Positions 6,983-14,375 of a stretch of 14,375 nt of DNA are shown here, one piece after another; within the stretch, counting starts at the first letter, position 1, and each line of letters opens with the position of its first letter. Source of the stretch: a virus. Its lineage: Duplodnaviria > Heunggongvirae > Uroviricota > Caudoviricetes. The notes below the pieces were generated by a model that saw only the letters and a program-made list of their open reading frames with translations, did no database searches and was not told where the DNA came from. The stretch is from IMG/VR virus record IMGVR_UViG_2690316131_000006; one strand, given 5' to 3'. The translations under genes and the position numbers were made by a program.

Positions 6983-7087
6983 ATGTCGGATGATATTTCA
7001 CTGGCAATGGAAGGTGCTCTGGCTGTTATTGCTGTTGTGGGCGTTTACTGCCTGGTTGTGTTTTTGATGGATCGACTAGGGAACTGA
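6983..7087 (+). CDS. Small hydrophobic peptide, 34 aa (MSDDISLAMEGALAVIAVVGVYCLVVFLMDRLGN), predicted membrane
   Basis: AGGAGG 4 nt upstream of ATG; one transmembrane-like segment. Not in the ORF track. Confidence 0.45.
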   Translation: MSDDISLAMEGALAVIAVVGVYCLVVFLMDRLGN

Positions 7088-7219
7088 ATTCATTACGATA
7101 TGGGAATTCCCATATCGGGTAAAAACGGTTTGCGGTAAAGCGAGAGTTAAGTAGAATTGCTGCGGGTGCTTGAGGCTGTCTGCCTCGGGCATGCCACCGT
7201 AAGGCAGACAGAGAAAAGC

Positions 7220-7285
7220 CCCAGTTAACATTACGCGTCCTGCAAGACGCCTAACATTAATCTGAGGCCAATTTCATGCTAGACA
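7220..7285 (-). ncRNA. sok: Sok-like antisense RNA of the hok locus (approximate position)
   Basis: Minus-strand promoter-like TTGCCT-17 nt-TAACCT at about 7291..7319 pointing leftward into the hok leader; inferred from hok/sok architecture, ends not determined. Confidence 0.3.
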
Positions 7286-7332
7286 TATGTAGGTTAGCCT
7301 CTTACGCGCCGAAAGGCAAGGAGAAGCAGGCT

Positions 7333-7488
7333 ATGAAGCAGCAAAAGGCGATGTTAATCGCCCTGATCGTCATCTGTATCACCGTCATAGTGACGGCACT
7401 GGTAACGAGGAAAGACCTCTGCGAGGTACGAATCCGAACCGGCCAGACGGAGGTCGCTGTCTTCACAGCTTACGAACCTGAGGAGTAA
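7333..7488 (+). CDS. hok: Hok/Gef-family type I toxin, 51 aa
   Basis: MKQQKAMLIALIVICITVIVTALVTRKDLCEVRIRTGQTEVAVFTAYEPEE: transmembrane helix plus conserved C-terminal motif; AAGGAG Shine-Dalgarno; in-frame upstream ATG at 7276 could be a mok-like start; 3' stem-loops and terminator downstream. Confidence 0.9.
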   Translation: MKQQKAMLIALIVICITVIVTALVTRKDLCEVRIRTGQTEVAVFTAYEPEE

Positions 7489-7557
7489 GAGACCCGGCGA
7501 GGGAGAAATCCCTCGCCACCTCTGATGAATCAGGCATCCTCAACGCACCCGCACTTA

Positions 7558-7583
7558 ACCCGCTTCGGCGGGTTTTGTTTTTT
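7558..7583 (+). terminator. Intrinsic terminator of the hok transcript
   Basis: ACCCGC-ttcg-GCGGGT hairpin followed by TTTGTTTTTT. Confidence 0.7.
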
Positions 7584-7655
7584 CCTGGCATTCTGGTTTA
7601 CAATTCGCACGCCAGCCTGAACAACTGGCACCTGCTGCGCCAGCAGAGACAACCG

Positions 7656-7934
7656 ATGGCGCACGATACCAAATTATACAATTCTGATGATTCTGCCGTC
7701 TTTGCCAGCAGGCGCGGACGGTGTTTTCACGCATTCAAATCTGACTGGTACCAGCATCCCCCATGCACTGAAGAACAGGCCGAATGGCTCATTCAGTGTT
7801 ACCGCAGGCGCGGATGCGAGGTTAAAAAAGCCCTTAGCCTCGACTACCGTCACTGGATAATCTCCGTCAGGCTCCCTTACTCCGAACGGCCACCGCGTCC
7901 GTCCCGCACATTCCAGCAACGGATCTGGAGGTAA
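7656..7934 (+). CDS. Hypothetical nin-region protein, 92 aa
   Basis: Only in-frame ATG after the hok terminator; weak Shine-Dalgarno; stop adjacent to the next start. Confidence 0.45.
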   Translation: MAHDTKLYNSDDSAVFASRRGRCFHAFKSDWYQHPPCTEEQAEWLIQCYRRRGCEVKKALSLDYRHWIISVRLPYSERPPRPSRTFQQRIWR

Positions 7935-7935
7935 T

Positions 7936-8985
7936 GTGCGGGTATTACTTCGACCTGTTCTGGTACCGGAACTCGGTCTGGTTATCGTTAAGCCAGGCCG
8001 TGAATCAATGTCAGCATTCCATAACGGCAGAATACTGGTGGAGCCGGAACCAAAAAGCATGCGAGCTCTGCCGTCCGGGGTTGTACCTGCCGTTCACCAG
8101 CCGCTGGCGGAAGATAAATCACTACTGCCATTTTTCAGCGATGAGCGGGTGAGCCGTGCTGCGGGTGGCGCTGGTGCACTGTCTGACTGGTTATTACGTC
8201 ACGTGAAATCCTGCCAGTGGCTACACGGTGATTATCATCACAGCGAAACCGTCATTCACCGTTACGGTACCGGCGCAATGGTGTTGTGCTGGCACTGCGA
8301 CAACCAGCTGCGTGACCAGACATCCGAATCACTCGAGCAACTTGCTCATCAAAACCTGTCAGCATGGATGATTGACGTCATCGGTCACGCAATAAGCGGT
8401 ACGCAGGAGCGTGAATTATCTCTGGCTGAATTATCCTGGTGGGCGGTCCGCAATCAGGTGGCGGACGCGCTACCGGAAGCGGTATTACGTCGTTCGCTGG
8501 GGTTGCGTGCGGAAAAAATCCGCTCCATGTACCGTGAAAGCGACATCGTACCGGGAGAGCAGACCGCCACCAGCATACTGAAACAGCGCACAAAAAATCT
8601 TGCGCCGCTGCCTCACGCCCACCAGCAACAGAACCCACCACAGGAAAAGACGGTGGTCAGCATTGCCGTTGATCCTGAGTCTCCGGAATCTTTCATGAAA
8701 CGACCTAAACGTCGCCGCTGGGTTAACGAGAAATACACTCGCTGGGTGAAGACACAGCCGTGTGCGTGTTGTGGTAAGCCAGCCGACGATCCCCATCACC
8801 TGATTGGTCATGGTCAGGGCGGAATGGGGACAAAATCTCACGATATTTTCACGCTACCGCTGTGTCGGGAGCATCACAACGAGCTTCATGCGGATCCGCT
8901 GGCGTTCGAAGAAAAGCATGGTTCTCAGGTTGATTTAATTTTTCGTTTTCTTGATCACGCCTTTGCAACTGGCGTGCTTGGGTAA
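7936..8985 (+). CDS. DUF968/YdfU-like protein with C-terminal HNH-like zinc-binding motif
   Basis: GTG start 5 nt after GGAGG; C-terminus ...QPCACCGKPADDPHHLIGHGQG...LPLCREHHNELH has Cys pairs with His-His as in HNH nucleases. Confidence 0.65.
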   Translation: MRVLLRPVLVPELGLVIVKPGRESMSAFHNGRILVEPEPKSMRALPSGVVPAVHQPLAEDKSLLPFFSDERVSRAAGGAGALSDWLLRHVKSCQWLHGDYHHSETVIHRYGTGAMVLCWHCDNQLRDQTSESLEQLAHQNLSAWMIDVIGHAISGTQERELSLAELSWWAVRNQVADALPEAVLRRSLGLRAEKIRSMYRESDIVPGEQTATSILKQRTKNLAPLPHAHQQQNPPQEKTVVSIAVDPESPESFMKRPKRRRWVNEKYTRWVKTQPCACCGKPADDPHHLIGHGQGGMGTKSHDIFTLPLCREHHNELHADPLAFEEKHGSQVDLIFRFLDHAFATGVLG

Positions 8986-8997
8986 AAGAGGTGACTG

Positions 8998-9372
8998 ATG
9001 CTCATAGATTTGGTTTTACCTTACCCGCCGACGGTGAACACTTACTGGCGACGCCGTGGCAGCACATATTTTATCTCGGAGGAGGGAAAGCGTTATCGCC
9101 GGGCTGTGGCGCTTATTGTTCGCCAGCAGCGGCTGAAATTAAGCCTGTCCGGAAGGCTGGCGATAAAGATTATTGCCGAGCCACCGGATAAGCGCCGCCG
9201 TGACTTGGACAATATTCTGAAAGCGCCGCTGGATGCGCTGACGCATGCGGGGTTGCTAATGGACGATGAGCAGTTTGATGAAATCAATATCGTTCGTGCT
9301 CAGCCAGTATCTGGTGGACGTCTGGGGGTGAAGATTTACCCCATAATGCTTGAAGGGCAGGTCAAAAAATGA
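8998..9372 (+). CDS. rusA: RusA-family Holliday junction resolvase
   Basis: 124 aa; PPTVNTYWRRRG...DKRRRDLDNILKAPLDALTHAGLLMDDEQ matches the RusA pattern (…RRDLDN…DAL…DD…); AGAGG Shine-Dalgarno. Confidence 0.85.
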   Translation: MLIDLVLPYPPTVNTYWRRRGSTYFISEEGKRYRRAVALIVRQQRLKLSLSGRLAIKIIAEPPDKRRRDLDNILKAPLDALTHAGLLMDDEQFDEINIVRAQPVSGGRLGVKIYPIMLEGQVKK

Positions 9373-10190
9373 AACTGGAAGATTTACCGAAATACTACTC
9401 CCCAAAATCCCCCGGCCTGACTGATGCATCGGCCTCAACGTCGAAAGATACGCTGAGTATCACTGATGTGATGGCTGCGCAGGGCATGACACAGAATTGG
9501 GCTGAGATGGGGTTTTCTGCGTTCCTTGGGAAAATGGGCATTAGTATGAATGACAGAGAGCGGGCAACAGAATTGCTGACAGAATATGCACTCAGTCGGT
9601 GTGATCGCGTGGCGGCGTTAAGAAAACTCCCGGCAGAAATAAAACCGGCAGTGATGCGTATTATGGCTTCGTATGCGTTTGAAGATTATGCCCGTAGCGC
9701 GGCGAGCAAAAAACAGTGCCCCTGTTGTCACGGAAAAAAATTTATTGAAAGCGAGGTTTTTACAAACAAGATCCAGTATCCGGATGGTAAGCCGCCAGTG
9801 TGGGCAAAGTGCACAAAAGGCGTGTATCCGTCTTACTGGGAGGAATGGAAAAAAGTCAGGGAGGTGGTAAAAGTTGCCTGTCCGGAGTGTGGAGGGAAGG
9901 GGGAGGTTTCCACCGCCTGTAAAGATTGTCGTGGGCGCGGTGTTGCCATTCATCGTGAAGAGTCGGTAAAACGTGGTATGCCTGTTATCAGAGACTGCCA
10001 GCGTTGTGGTGGTCGTGGCTATGAAAGATTACCTTCAACGGAGGCATTTAATGCCATATGTAATGTAACCGATGCCATATCTCTTGATACATGGAAAAAA
10101 ACAGTTAAACGTTTTTACGATACGCTGGTGGTGCAGTTTGATATTGAAGAAGCATGGGCAGAACAACAACTGAAAAAGGTGACCAGATAG
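9369..10190 (+). CDS. Putative late-gene antiterminator (Q-like, QuuQ-type position) with four DnaJ-type CxxCxGxG zinc-finger repeats
   Basis: ATGA overlap with rusA; CPCCHGKK, CPECGGKG, CKDCRGRG, CQRCGGRG; immediately followed by a strong promoter and a terminator. Call is by position. Confidence 0.55.
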   Translation: MKLEDLPKYYSPKSPGLTDASASTSKDTLSITDVMAAQGMTQNWAEMGFSAFLGKMGISMNDRERATELLTEYALSRCDRVAALRKLPAEIKPAVMRIMASYAFEDYARSAASKKQCPCCHGKKFIESEVFTNKIQYPDGKPPVWAKCTKGVYPSYWEEWKKVREVVKVACPECGGKGEVSTACKDCRGRGVAIHREESVKRGMPVIRDCQRCGGRGYERLPSTEAFNAICNVTDAISLDTWKKTVKRFYDTLVVQFDIEEAWAEQQLKKVTR

Positions 10191-10192
10191 CT

Positions 10193-10223
10193 TTGTTGAT
10201 TTTTCCCGAATCTGTGGTAAAAT
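10193..10223 (+). promoter_or_regulatory. Late promoter (pR'-like) with extended -10 (TGgTAAAAT)
   Basis: TTGTTGA -35-like, about 17-18 nt spacer, TGgTAAAAT at 10215..10223, directly after the Q-like stop. Confidence 0.5.
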
Positions 10224-10270
10224 TGCCCTAACGATGGGCGTTTTATGCCTGACGTTAGAAGATTTTTTAC

Positions 10271-10294
10271 ACCCGTCGCCAGGCGGGTTTTTTT
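10271..10294 (+). terminator. tR'-like intrinsic terminator about 45-65 nt downstream of the late promoter
   Basis: ACCCG-tcgccagg-CGGGT hairpin followed by seven T. Confidence 0.55.
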
Positions 10295-10416
10295 ATGACT
10301 GAAATCACGCCAGTACAGTAAACGCGCTGGTGGTTGTGAATACCGGTCTTTCAGCTTGCTGGCTTTTTCGACAAGAGTTATTGGTATGTCACGTTAACCA
10401 GAAAAGGGAAAAAGAC

Positions 10417-10614
10417 ATGCTAAAACAGCAGGATATGACCGAAACCGCCAGAGTGGTGTTTAATGAATTAAGCGTCACCGAACCGGCGACCGTCGGGGAA
10501 ATTGCGCAGAATACTTACCTTTCACGCGAACGTTGCCAGTTAATACTGACCCAGCTTGTTATGGCGGGTCTGGCAGATTATCAGTTCGGTTGTTACAGAC
10601 GCCTTCCGCAGTGA
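10417..10614 (+). CDS. Small winged-helix-like protein, 65 aa
   Basis: ATG 10417 with AAGGG upstream; sequence ...TVGEIAQNTYLSRERCQLILTQLVMAGLADY; its 3' end overlaps a terminator hairpin. Confidence 0.45.
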   Translation: MLKQQDMTETARVVFNELSVTEPATVGEIAQNTYLSRERCQLILTQLVMAGLADYQFGCYRRLPQ

Positions 10615-10626
10615 AGGTTTTTTTTA
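10602..10626 (+). terminator. Intrinsic terminator
   Basis: CCTTC-cgcagt-GAAGG hairpin followed by nine T. Confidence 0.5.
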
Positions 10627-10765
10627 TTTGTGGTAATGGGCGGCTGGTGGGTGTTAGCGGCACCTGCCAGCCATCTGCTCATGCGTTGGGGTCACAAGCA
10701 AACCTCAGGCCCATCTGCTTTGCGCAAAAGCAGAACGAGCCTATCAGAGAAGTGCTTACTGATCT

Positions 10766-11791
10766 ATGGTCAATACTGTAAAAATATCCAGTTGTGAATT
10801 AATCAACGCTGATTGCCTGGAATTTATCCAGACCTTACCGGAAAACTCTGTCGATCTGATAGTCACAGACCCGCCATACTTTAAAGTGAAGCCCGAAGGC
10901 TGGGATAACCAGTGGAAGGGCGACGATGATTACCTGAAATGGCTGGACCAGTGTCTGGCGCAGTTCTGGCGGTTACTGAAGCCTGCCGGAAGTCTTTACC
11001 TGTTCTGTGGTCATCGCCTGGCATCTGATATCGAAATCATGATGCGCGAACGCTTTAACGTGCTGAACCATATCATCTGGGCGAAGCCGTCCGGACGCTG
11101 GAACGGGTGCAGTAAGGAAAGCCTGCGGGCGTATTTTCCCGCCACAGAGCGTATTCTGTTTGCTGAACATTATCAGGGGCCATACCAGCCAAAAAATGGC
11201 GGCTATGCGGCAAAGGAGCGCGAGCTTAAACAGCATGTGATGTCTCCGCTGATTTCTTACTTTCGTGATGCGCGTGAATCACTGGGGATAACGTCGAAAC
11301 AGATAGCGGAAGCCACCGGAAAGAAAAACATGGTGTCGCACTGGTTTGGTGCCCGCCAGTGGCAGTTACCGAACGAGGATGATTACAGAAAACTGCAGGC
11401 GTTGTTTGCGCGTGTTGCAGCAGAAAAACATCAACGCGGGGAACTGGAAAAGCCACACCACCAGCTGGTCAGCACATACAGTGAACTTAACCGGCAATAT
11501 GCCAGCCTGCTGGAGGAGTACAAATCTTTGCGGCGTTATTTTTCTGTATCGGCTGCTGTTCCGTATACGGATGTCTGGATGTATAAGCCTGTACAGTATT
11601 ATCCGGGCAAACACCCCTGTGAAAAACCGGCAGATATGTTGCGTCAGATAATAGAGGCCAGCAGTCGTCCGGGTGATTTGGTTGCCGACTTTTTTATGGG
11701 GTCAGGTTCCACGATAAAAGCCGCGCTTTCGCTTGGTCGTCGGGCAATAGGCGTTGTGAGCTTGAGGCTGAACGGTTTGAGCAGACGGTGA
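10766..11791 (+). CDS. DNA methyltransferase, beta-class amino-methyltransferase (N6-adenine or N4-cytosine)
   Basis: N-terminal motif IV DLIVTDPPYF and C-terminal motif I DLVADFFMGSGST (order IV then I); 341 aa; no adjacent restriction endonuclease seen. Confidence 0.85.
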   Translation: MVNTVKISSCELINADCLEFIQTLPENSVDLIVTDPPYFKVKPEGWDNQWKGDDDYLKWLDQCLAQFWRLLKPAGSLYLFCGHRLASDIEIMMRERFNVLNHIIWAKPSGRWNGCSKESLRAYFPATERILFAEHYQGPYQPKNGGYAAKERELKQHVMSPLISYFRDARESLGITSKQIAEATGKKNMVSHWFGARQWQLPNEDDYRKLQALFARVAAEKHQRGELEKPHHQLVSTYSELNRQYASLLEEYKSLRRYFSVSAAVPYTDVWMYKPVQYYPGKHPCEKPADMLRQIIEASSRPGDLVADFFMGSGSTIKAALSLGRRAIGVVSLRLNGLSRR

Positions 11792-11938
11792 GCGAGATAA
11801 GAGAAATTCTGACGTGTAAAGCTGTTGATTGATTAATTAATGCTTATTTTTTCATAAGTCTTGTTGCAATATATAAGTATGGGGTGTAAAGTTGTTCTCG
11901 AAAATAATCATGTTTTCTCACGAATCAGAGGGGGGATA

Positions 11939-12199
11939 ATGATTGAGGTTCGATGGACAAGGACAGCCCTGAAGCAGTTACTTCGTGTGGATACGCGGTA
12001 TCGGCAGGCGATAAAGGATAAGGTCGGTGCGCTAAAGGATTTTCCTCTGGTAGCCATGGATTTTAAAAAGCTATCAGGGAGTGACAATCGATTCCGTTTG
12101 AGGGTCGGCGTGTACAGGGTTATTTTTGATGTTGAGGATGGTGATCCTGTTGTCCTGGATATTAAGGAAATTAAGCGCAGAAGCACAACCACATACTAA
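11939..12199 (+). CDS. RelE/ParE-superfamily type II toxin (HigB-like, toxin-first order)
   Basis: 86 aa; ...NRFRLRVGVYRVIFDVEDGDPVVLDIKEIKRR typical of the RelE/ParE fold; GAGGGGGG Shine-Dalgarno. Confidence 0.8.
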   Translation: MIEVRWTRTALKQLLRVDTRYRQAIKDKVGALKDFPLVAMDFKKLSGSDNRFRLRVGVYRVIFDVEDGDPVVLDIKEIKRRSTTTY

Positions 12200-12259
12200 G
12201 GGAGGCTGGCGGGAGACCGCCAGTTTGCTGAACGACATTCAATCGCGAAAGGCAATGAT

Positions 12260-12634
12260 ATGAAAAACAGTGTCCAGTTTATTACTGATAATGCCGGTGT
12301 TAGAACCGGGGTCATTATGTCAGTTGCTGAATATGAACGGCTGTTAAGTCTGGCAGATCCTGATGATGATTTTGAAAGCATCCAGTATGAAGCCGGAGAG
12401 AATGACAATGAAACAATACCTCATGAAGTAGTATCCATCATGATTGATGATGATGTGTCATTGTTGGCAGCATGGCGGATTTACAGGCGAATGACTCAAC
12501 AGGAAGTGGCGGAGCGCCTGGGGGTTAAACAGTCAGCCGTATCTCAGTTTGAGAGAGCAGGAGCTCCGCGAAAATCAACACTGGAAAAACTGGCTGAGAT
12601 TTACAACTGCCGACCAAATCAGTTGGCTGATTAA
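12260..12634 (+). CDS. HigA-like antitoxin with C-terminal XRE helix-turn-helix
   Basis: 124 aa; ...MTQQEVAERLGVKQSAVSQFERAGAPRKSTLEKLAEIY; directly downstream of the toxin. Confidence 0.8.
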   Translation: MKNSVQFITDNAGVRTGVIMSVAEYERLLSLADPDDDFESIQYEAGENDNETIPHEVVSIMIDDDVSLLAAWRIYRRMTQQEVAERLGVKQSAVSQFERAGAPRKSTLEKLAEIYNCRPNQLAD

Positions 12635-12779
12635 TCCTGAGTTTGGTTTTCGTAGCGATTGCATTTTTCTTATCTGCTTGCCGTTGTAGGTAGCGTGTAT
12701 TTGCATGTTGTTTTGTAGTTAACCTTATGGTTGGCTGAATTTTGTTCATCAATAAAAAATATCCCTCTCTGATCTTTAA

Positions 12780-12805
12780 GGTTCGCTTTGGCGGACCTTT
12801 TTTTT
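12780..12805 (+). terminator. Intrinsic terminator
   Basis: GGTTCGC-tttg-GCGGACC (one G·U pair) followed by eight T. Confidence 0.55.
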
Positions 12806-12941
12806 ATTTCCGCGCCACGCCCGGCGTACATCAAAAACCACAGAGCCTTTCAGGGGTGAGCTTACGGGATGGTCAGTGTGACTTTCTCTGTGGGCTGGTC
12901 ACCCCCGGGCGCAGGCTCACCCACTAAAAGGAAAAGTCACG

Positions 12942-13373
12942 ATGTTTGGTATTTTCAAAAAGAAAACCCGCAGAGCAGCAACTGAAATTAAAAAGTTTGA
13001 GAAACGCGATCTGGCACAGGCGGTTATTAATGCTGCCTACCTGGTGGCCTATGCAGATGGTGAATGTGAGACTTCAGAGAAAGCGAAGATCGAACAGGTA
13101 TTACGTAACCAGCCAGCATTGTCCGCATTTACGTCAGAAATTAATGCCATCAGTGCCACGATCACAGGTCAGCTTGACACCAATTTTAAAATTGGTCGTC
13201 GTGCAGCGTTGCGTGAAATTGAAGATGTGAAACACGATACGCGTGAAGCGGAAGACGTGCTGGATGTGGCGGTGGCCATTGCTGAAGCAGATGGTGAAAT
13301 TGAGCCGGAAGAGCGTAAGGTTCTGGAAGAGATTGCTGGTGTTCTTGGCCTGCGACTGGAGAACCACCTGTGA
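12942..13373 (+). CDS. TerB-family (tellurite-resistance TerB-like) protein, 143 aa
   Basis: Two acidic ADGE motifs (AYADGECETSEKAKIEQ and AEADGEIEPEERKVLEEI) typical of TerB; AAAAGGAAAAG upstream of ATG. Confidence 0.75.
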   Translation: MFGIFKKKTRRAATEIKKFEKRDLAQAVINAAYLVAYADGECETSEKAKIEQVLRNQPALSAFTSEINAISATITGQLDTNFKIGRRAALREIEDVKHDTREAEDVLDVAVAIAEADGEIEPEERKVLEEIAGVLGLRLENHL

Positions 13374-13537
13374 CGGTAAAACTGCGTCTGGCCGCTGTGG
13401 CACTCCTGCTGTTTCTGGTGGTGATGGTGGATTTCACCAGCAGGATCATGTCGGTGCTGGCGGATGGAGTGCTGGTCTGCGGCATTGTGGTATTGCTGTG
13501 GCCGGTGATAAAAAGAAACAGCCTGCATAATGCTTGA
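13370..13537 (+). CDS. Possible small membrane protein, 55 aa, translationally coupled to the TerB-like gene
   Basis: GTG overlaps the TerB stop (GTGA); VTVKLRLAAVALLLFLVVMVDFTSRIMSVLADGVLVCGIVVLLWPVIKRNSLHNA has two hydrophobic segments. Not in the ORF track as such. Confidence 0.35.
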   Translation: MTVKLRLAAVALLLFLVVMVDFTSRIMSVLADGVLVCGIVVLLWPVIKRNSLHNA

Positions 13538-13704
13538 TTTTTTTGTTTGCTGTTTATTAAAAACACTTCTGCATGGTGAATCCCCCTGTGCGGTGGGGCA
13601 ATCAGCAAGAAGGAATATGGGGTAATCGCGGATTCAGGTGCTGATACTGAATTCACCGGGAGGCACCCGGCACCATGCAAGAAAAAGAATGTGCATGCAA
13701 ACAT

Positions 13705-13728
13705 GCCCCTCTCCGGAGGGGCTTTTTT
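13705..13728 (+). terminator. Intrinsic terminator
   Basis: Perfect GCCCCTC-tccg-GAGGGGC hairpin followed by six T. Confidence 0.65.
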
Positions 13729-13732
13729 ATGG

Positions 13733-13760
13733 GTAAAAAAATGCCCGAATGGGTTCGGGC
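13733..13760 (-). terminator. Convergent (minus-strand) terminator-like hairpin
   Basis: GCCCGAA-tggg-TTCGGGC, which on the minus strand is followed by TTTTTTT (13733..13739). Confidence 0.4.
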
Positions 13761-13944
13761 AATAGCATGAGATACTGATATTGTTGTGTTGTTATCGTGT
13801 GGATTTTAACCAGGGTTTATCAGGCTGCGCAACTGCGTGGCCTTTTTTCATTTCTTGGGCTGTAGTCCCCGTGTGTCATTCAGGCTTCCGGACTACAGCC
13901 CACTCCATATCTGATTTAATACACTATCCCGGCCGGGAGGAATA

Positions 13945-14375
13945 ATGACATTTAAACATTATGATGTTGTCAGGGCGGCGTCGCCGTCAGACCTTGCGGA
14001 AAAGCTGACACACAAACTGAAAGAGGGCTGGCAGCCGTTTGGTAGTCCGGTGGCCATAACCCCTTATACCCTGATGCAGGCGATTGCAGCAGAAGGTGAT
14101 GTGGTCGTCAGTGGTGCAACTGAGCCGGAGTGGTACTACGTCATCGTACTGGCCGGGCAGTCCAATGCAATGGCTTACGGTGAAGGGCTTCCGCTTCCGG
14201 ATTCATACGATGCTCCGGATCCGCGCATTAAACAGCTGGCGCGCCGCAGTACAGTGACGCCGGGTGGGGCTGCCTGCAGATATAACGATATTATTCCGGC
14301 CGACCACTGCCTGCATGATGTGCAGGATATGAGTACGCTGAATCATCCGAAGGCAGACCTGAGCAAAGGGCAGTA
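13945..14375 (+). CDS. Partial (5' end only) NanS-p-like esterase: N-terminal DUF1737-like domain followed by the start of an SGNH/sialate O-acetylesterase domain
   Basis: GGGAGGA Shine-Dalgarno; MTFKHYDVVRAASPSDLAEKLTHKLKEGWQPFGSP... then ...YYVIVLAGQSNAMAYGEG (GQSN block); open to the window end. Confidence 0.7.
   Translation, partial: MTFKHYDVVRAASPSDLAEKLTHKLKEGWQPFGSPVAITPYTLMQAIAAEGDVVVSGATEPEWYYVIVLAGQSNAMAYGEGLPLPDSYDAPDPRIKQLARRSTVTPGGAACRYNDIIPADHCLHDVQDMSTLNHPKADLSKGQ

Follow-up and report, generated by a model that had tools for sequence, protein, structure and literature searches.

Start of a probable prophage-borne nanS-p gene in the late region of a lambdoid prophage without stx

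The window, i.e. the whole stretch of DNA analyzed here, comprises 14,375 nt of the Caudoviricetes record IMGVR_UViG_2690316131_000006. The open reading frame at its 3' end is very probably the start of a prophage-borne nanS-p gene in its standard late-operon place, as judged from sequence homology, and would encode a three-domain sialate O-acetylesterase. The window is an early-to-late stretch of a lambdoid prophage and represents an stx-negative relative of Stx phages. This copy of nanS-p is ordinary, belongs to an already known kind and adds no new biology. Coordinates of all features are collected in Table 1.

The frame starts with an ATG codon read from the sequence at 13945-13947, and the Shine-Dalgarno sequence before it is kept in an Stx1a phage and in phage 933W. 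Its translation (13945-14373) yields 143 residues with zero stop codons and exits the window end; the chance of a 143-codon open frame is p ~5e-4 for a random frame of the same base composition. Full-length homologues have 616-617 amino acids, and the window holds the first 23% of the gene, the other 77% lying beyond its end. The fragment is identical at 142 of 143 positions to a 616-aa 'SASA family carbohydrate esterase' from a prophage in E. coli FORC_042, and at 141 of 143 to the 617-aa 'yjhS, 9-O-acetyl-N-acetylneuraminic acid deacetylase' of phage PPyecE_EH1910. On the DNA level, the identity to the intact FORC_042 gene is 99.5% over all 431 nt. The PHROGs assignment is phrog_143 (E 2e-94). 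An earlier note on this DNA had proposed a NanS-p-type esterase like those of Stx phages and had suggested a homology comparison with NanS-p. The similarity is significant: the fragment is 67% identical to L0105 of 933W, the ORF immediately downstream of stx2B (E 9e-74; tblastn E 4.8e-64), and 99% identical to annotated esterases. NCBIfam contains no model for this family and matches neither the fragment nor the full-length homologue, hence the name NanS-p rests on Pfam, PDB and literature homology. PADLOC returned nothing for the esterase ORF.

The encoded fragment contains a DUF1737 domain followed by the beginning of an SGNH/SASA catalytic domain. Both the DUF1737-like N-terminus and the GQSN-containing SGNH block had been read from the sequence in the earlier note, and the Pfam and NanS matches bear them out at the same place (Table 1). 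The context of block I in the window protein is LAGQSNAMAYGEG, and the alignment with 3pt5, the solved 9-O-acetyl-N-acetylneuraminate esterase NanS/YjhS of E. coli O157:H7, takes in AGQSNAMAYGEGLPLPD. GQSNA at residues 71-75 aligns with GQSNA of 3pt5, and Ser73 (nt 14161-14163) with the catalytic Ser19 of NanS. In the NanS structure, GQSNA at positions 17-21 is SGNH block I and contains the nucleophile serine (PMC10792757).

The Pfam SASA model is not reached at E 0.01 by the 143-residue fragment alone, so that the catalytic domain is assigned from the PDB match and from the full-length homologues, which are nearly identical. The 617-aa PPyecE_EH1910 protein does reach the SASA model; its Pfam domains are DUF1737, SASA and DUF6645 (PF20350, E 4.6e-18). 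In the 616-aa FORC_042 protein, residues 59-379 match residues 16-332 of the NanS chain (E 1.4e-121), the blocks RGGSAF, MQGEFD and RPTHFS are present, and there is a match to 6yp6, the solved C-terminal lectin-like domain of NanS-p (E 1.1e-29). The His block of this closest full-length relative is RPTH, as compared with the commoner RSSH or RASH. Block I alone of the four SGNH blocks falls inside the window; the others and the lectin-like jelly-roll domain lie beyond its end.

Table 1. Features of the window, in order of position (residue numbers refer to the predicted NanS-p fragment)
Feature	Position	Strand	Evidence or remark
DicF sRNA	374-323	-	75.8 bits
S24-type cI-like repressor	1884-2657	-	
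Cro, P22-Cro-like	2650-2865		
YdaT	2862-3287		
Replication proteins	3295-5019		
DUF1627, DUF977, DUF551	5045-6867		
hok/sok: sok antisense RNA with hok-type toxin locus	7164-7338	+	114.3 bits
DUF968	7936-8985		
RusA	8998-9372		
Late antiterminator Q, 273 aa	9369-10190	+	PF03589, E 4.7e-50; region 91.6% DNA identity to the quuQ region of an Stx2a phage
Candidate PR' (TTGATT, 16-nt spacer, TG-TAAAAT; extended -10)	10196-10223	+	Directly after the Q stop codon; putative
Candidate tR' terminator, strong	10271-10288 plus T7	+	About 50 nt downstream of PR'; putative
N6/N4 DNA methyltransferase	10766-11791	+	2-bp insertion near 3' end
RelE/ParE toxin	11939-12199	+	Cargo, slot of stx in related phages
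HTH protein	12260-12634	+	Cargo, slot of stx in related phages
TerB	12942-13373	+	Cargo, slot of stx in related phages
DUF3927	13370-13537	+	Cargo, slot of stx in related phages
STnc100-family sRNA, convergent with AgvB	13542-13734	+	RF02076, 142.5 vs 47 bits; terminator 13705-13722
AgvB anti-sRNA (GcvB sponge)	13736-13797	-	RF02702, 96.5 bits vs gathering score 56
Structured leader of nanS-p	13822-13902	+	Fold z = -2.9
Shine-Dalgarno GGGAGG	13935-13940	+	Read directly; 4 nt before ATG
5' part of nanS-p (143 codons plus 2 nt)	13945-14375	+	Open at window end
DUF1737 domain, residues 3-50	13951-14094	+	Pfam PF08410, E 2.4e-16, 59.8 bits vs cut-off 24
Start of SGNH/SASA catalytic domain, residues 59-138	14119-14358	+	NanS/YjhS 3pt5, E 1.6e-31
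SGNH block I, GQSN, residues 71-74	14155-14166	+	Inside the 80-residue 3pt5 match

The order of genes in the window is that of a lambdoid prophage, from the immunity and replication genes through Q to the cargo stretch (11939-13537, plus strand) and the esterase. DicF and hok/sok are standard features of Rac/Qin-like lambdoid prophages. The upstream half of the late-operon setting expected for nanS-p, namely Q, the cargo and an sRNA pair, lies in the window; for the downstream half, the holin and lysozyme genes, the evidence comes from relatives. The nearest of these have genes for holin, lysozyme, Rz, terminase, a protease-capsid fusion and portal after the esterase, and PPyecE_EH1910 then runs into lambda-like tail genes. 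The order Q, cargo, esterase, holin, lysozyme is common to the nearest relatives and is found also in Stx1a and Stx2a phages.

The methylase gene has a 2-bp insertion at approximately 11755-11760 relative to PPyecE_EH1910 and Stx2_EH1910, which shifts the frame after residue 330 and replaces the last ~24 codons by 11 others. A 2-bp insertion is present at this position in the methylase gene of the FORC_042 prophage too, where the annotation gives a frameshifted pseudogene. The window protein keeps the FxGxG motif (DFFMGSGST), so the function of the methylase may survive. A PADLOC search gave nothing for the RelE, TerB and DUF3927 ORFs, the only matches being the methylase (MTase_II) and generic HTH models.

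The relation to Stx phages is seen on both sides of the cargo. In pairwise blastn, the stretch 8668-11795, which holds the 3' end of the DUF968 gene, rusA, Q, a small ORF and the methylase gene, is 91.6% identical to the Stx2a-converting phage Stx2_EH1910, and homology to this phage resumes exactly at the nanS-p ATG (13945-14375, 95.6%). With Stx1a phages, the window has 13649-14375 in common (92.9%, blastn), beginning ~200 nt past the stx1B stop codon. Between the two homologous stretches, Stx2_EH1910 contains three tRNAs, stx2A, stx2B and iraM; the same interval of the window contains the RelE/ParE-HTH genes, TerB, DUF3927 and the STnc100/AgvB sRNA pair. In both Stx1a and Stx2a phages, the first gene past stxB on the plus strand is the nanS-p homologue; in Stx2_EH1910, the minus-strand iraM gene separates the two.

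The interval from Q to nanS-p is where Stx-converting phages have stxA and stxB, in most cases preceded by tRNA genes. A tblastn search of the window with the A and B subunits of Stx1 and Stx2 had a best E of 0.35, and ARAGORN found zero tRNA genes in the window. The whole interval from Q to nanS-p is inside the window, and stx is therefore absent from its canonical position. This agrees with the suggestion of the earlier note that the DNA comes from an Stx-related lambdoid prophage lacking stx.

The exchanged segments are 11796-13944 in the window and 4627-7144 in the Stx2_EH1910 sequence, placed between the same Q-methylase and nanS-p flanks. On the left, the breakpoint falls inside the methylase gene, within ~30 nt of its 3' end; on the right, it coincides exactly with the nanS-p ATG. 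The window cargo is covered by at least 80% in only 9 of 5426 complete E. coli genomes. For comparative purposes, the window is a clean and mildly useful case of exchanged cargo in the stx slot.

The interval between the cargo and nanS-p is rich in RNA elements. Tree et al. (2014, PMC4104026) described a convergent anti-sRNA pair for the moron site of EHEC prophages, and the window has the same arrangement: between the cargo and nanS-p, a plus-strand STnc100-type sRNA faces AgvB, which is encoded on the minus strand; no difference from the published pair was seen. AgvB coincides with the Rfam consensus at every position, including CACAACA, the mimic of the GcvB seed. A sub-threshold AsxR match overlaps AgvB, whose conserved 3' part is common to both RNAs. 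A permissive Rfam search of 10100-14375 added only this AsxR match and two matches at chance level.

The nanS-p leader contains a terminator-like hairpin (13822-13843) followed by a T run and then by a 13-bp hairpin (13856-13902). Both hairpins are conserved in Stx1a phages, and largely or in part in 933W; they may act in attenuation, processing or mRNA stability. Further terminator-like hairpins are located at 12778-12799 and 13705-13722. Together with the candidate PR' and tR', these promoter-like and terminator-like sites fit late-operon control. Short PR' transcripts are a feature of lambda (6S RNA) and of Stx phages (StxS). The PR' and tR' candidates of the window would likewise give a short PR' transcript; no Rfam family scored above chance there.

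We propose the following mode of expression and action. The nanS-p gene follows Q, the candidate PR' and the cargo ('moron') slot, and the near-identical relatives suggest that holin and endolysin genes come after it. Between PR' and the ATG there are several terminator-like hairpins, from which we infer that most transcription of nanS-p would come from Q-antiterminated late transcripts formed on prophage induction. The chromosomal NanS is exported by its signal peptide, a route that NanS-p is not known to use. The DUF1737 N-terminus and what is known from the literature point to release by lysis rather than by signal-peptide export. NanS-p would presumably come into contact with its substrate once some cells of the lysogen population lyse, and might be carried there on the virion capsid. 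In NanS-type SGNH esterases, a Ser/His pair removes the 9-O-acetyl group from Neu5,9Ac2; by homology, Ser73 would be the residue that attacks this ester in Neu5,9Ac2 and in O-acetylated mucin glycans. The product, Neu5Ac, could then be taken up and catabolised by E. coli.

Published experiments on other alleles describe such an activity and induction. Recombinant NanS-p proteins from all EDL933 and O104:H4 prophage alleles are active esterases that allow growth on Neu5,9Ac2, and NanS-p alleles also de-O-acetylate mucin glycans (PMC8065619). The same activity on Neu5,9Ac2 and mucin glycans is expected for the product of the window allele. Upon induction with mitomycin C, nanS-p transcripts increase by 1-2.4 logs (PMC10462455).

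The 431-nt 5' end of nanS-p matches 2178 of 5426 complete E. coli genomes, with as many as 13 places in one genome. Seven to ten nanS-p alleles are found in EDL933 and five in O104:H4, all located on prophages (PMC8065619). The gene is common in non-Stx lambdoid prophages and thus marks a broad pool of lambdoid late regions, not specifically the Stx lineage. Many E. coli genomes, e.g. UM146, match only nt 1-220 of the query, where the annotation reads 'DUF1737 domain-containing protein | hypothetical protein'; these 220-nt matches suggest short DUF1737 ORFs or remnants without an esterase domain. Present in many copies per genome, nanS-p genes matter to EHEC and other E. coli as a means of access to the O-acetylated sialic acids of mucus. 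The importance of the window fragment is mostly that of correct annotation; it also indicates where the late region of a lambdoid prophage begins.

Two readings of the frame other than an intact prophage nanS-p gene were weighed. The window ends after 143 codons with the rest of the gene outside, insertions of IS3- and IS66-family elements in nanS-p or truncations of it are documented (PMC10462455), and matches limited to nt 1-220 are frequent; the neighboring methylase gene already has a 2-bp frameshift. These observations would fit a truncated or IS-disrupted pseudogene, or a short stand-alone DUF1737 ORF, from which no esterase is made, but the frame extends far beyond nt 220 without a stop, across block I and up to the window end, and the match to the intact FORC_042 gene is part of a 99.67% identity to that prophage over 2854-14375. 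We consider such a remnant very unlikely. The gene is likely to be intact beyond the window end, given the frame open past nt 220 and the 99.5% DNA identity to an intact gene. The best match among solved structures is the chromosomal NanS and relatives are annotated 'yjhS', as would be expected if the frame were chromosomal nanS (yjhS) from the sialic-acid operon nanCMS. However, the similarity to NanS begins only at residue 59, behind DUF1737, and the full-length relatives have 616-617 amino acids with a C-terminal DUF6645 lectin domain, compared with 337 residues in the 3pt5 chain. Neither nanC nor nanM is among the neighbors, which are Q, the methylase, a toxin-antitoxin pair and prophage sRNAs. 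A chromosomal nanS has next to no probability, being refuted by the gene context and by a domain architecture that is not single-domain.

A further alternative concerns the role of the prophage-borne NanS-p rather than its identity. According to a cryo-EM and proteomics preprint on phi24B, the DUF1737 domain is the capsid-binding part of the esterase, and a DUF1737 hexamer of gp84 sits on the central hexons of the T=9 capsid (bioRxiv 10.64898/2026.04.10.717836). The DUF1737 domain of the window is identical to that of 933W at 29 of 40 positions (about 72%), and nanS-p belongs to the late operon. NanS-p could accordingly be mainly a structural virion protein anchored on capsid hexons by the DUF1737 hexamer, with the esterase and lectin parts serving the particle in its interaction with mucus or surface glycans, not the metabolism of the lysogen. 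We hold this to be possible but rather doubtful. The nearest relatives have as capsid protein a protease-capsid fusion (PF04586 plus PF05065), for which a comparison of the head genes at 33344-35281 of the FORC_042 prophage with those at 5902-7116 of the 933W-type phage detected no sequence similarity to the 933W-type capsid (PF13252); the binding partner would thus differ. The shorter interdomain linker of the window protein does not contain SISSP, the proposed processing site (bioRxiv 10.64898/2026.04.10.717836), and for several alleles the metabolic role is supported directly by experiment (PMC8065619). The virion and metabolic roles are not mutually exclusive.

The retention of ~72% identity in DUF1737 despite sequence-unrelated heads raises the thought that a portable capsid-decoration module might exist. 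We speculate, while judging it unlikely, that DUF1737-NanS-p is such a module and docks on HK97-fold hexons generally; alternatively, DUF1737 may have another role in these prophages. If true, a portable module would give many lambdoid virions a mucin-binding, de-O-acetylating surface.

Among known systems, the chromosomal NanS (YjhS, 3pt5) has the same SGNH catalytic domain and the same block I, GQSNA. In contrast to the gene family of the window, the solved NanS chain (337 residues) has neither DUF1737 nor the lectin domain; at the place of DUF1737, chromosomal NanS has an N-terminus of its own. Chromosomal NanS carries an export signal and is encoded in the nanCMS operon. The NanS-p proteins of 933W (L0105 / z1466) and phi24B (gp84 / vb_24B_21) show the same beginning, a DUF1737 domain followed by SGNH/SASA with GQSN, as well as the same late-operon position downstream of the cargo slot, and the lectin-like C-terminal domain (6yp6) that is present also in the full-length relatives of the window gene. 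The interdomain linker of the window protein is 14 residues shorter than that of 933W NanS-p and is without the SISSP motif, and its gene, unlike that of 933W, is not preceded by stx. In addition, the nearest relatives of the window have, in place of the 933W-type structural module, lambda-like tail genes and a head module unrelated in sequence.

The closest systems are the non-Stx prophage PPyecE_EH1910 (LC567835; DNA identity 96.4% over the common stretches) and the FORC_042 prophage located next to potC. Both have the same upstream cargo as the window, namely the methylase, RelE, HTH, TerB, DUF3927 and the sRNAs, and nothing essential distinguishes the window from either of them in the esterase region seen. 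The early region of PPyecE_EH1910 is mosaic, with only 8668-8978 (79.1%) and 10267-14375 common to the window. The FORC_042 prophage differs in the immunity region (window 1788-2853), where it encodes RacR in place of the S24-type repressor and Cro; the rest of the window is 94-99.7% identical to it, and the difference is a typical mosaic swap of an immunity module.
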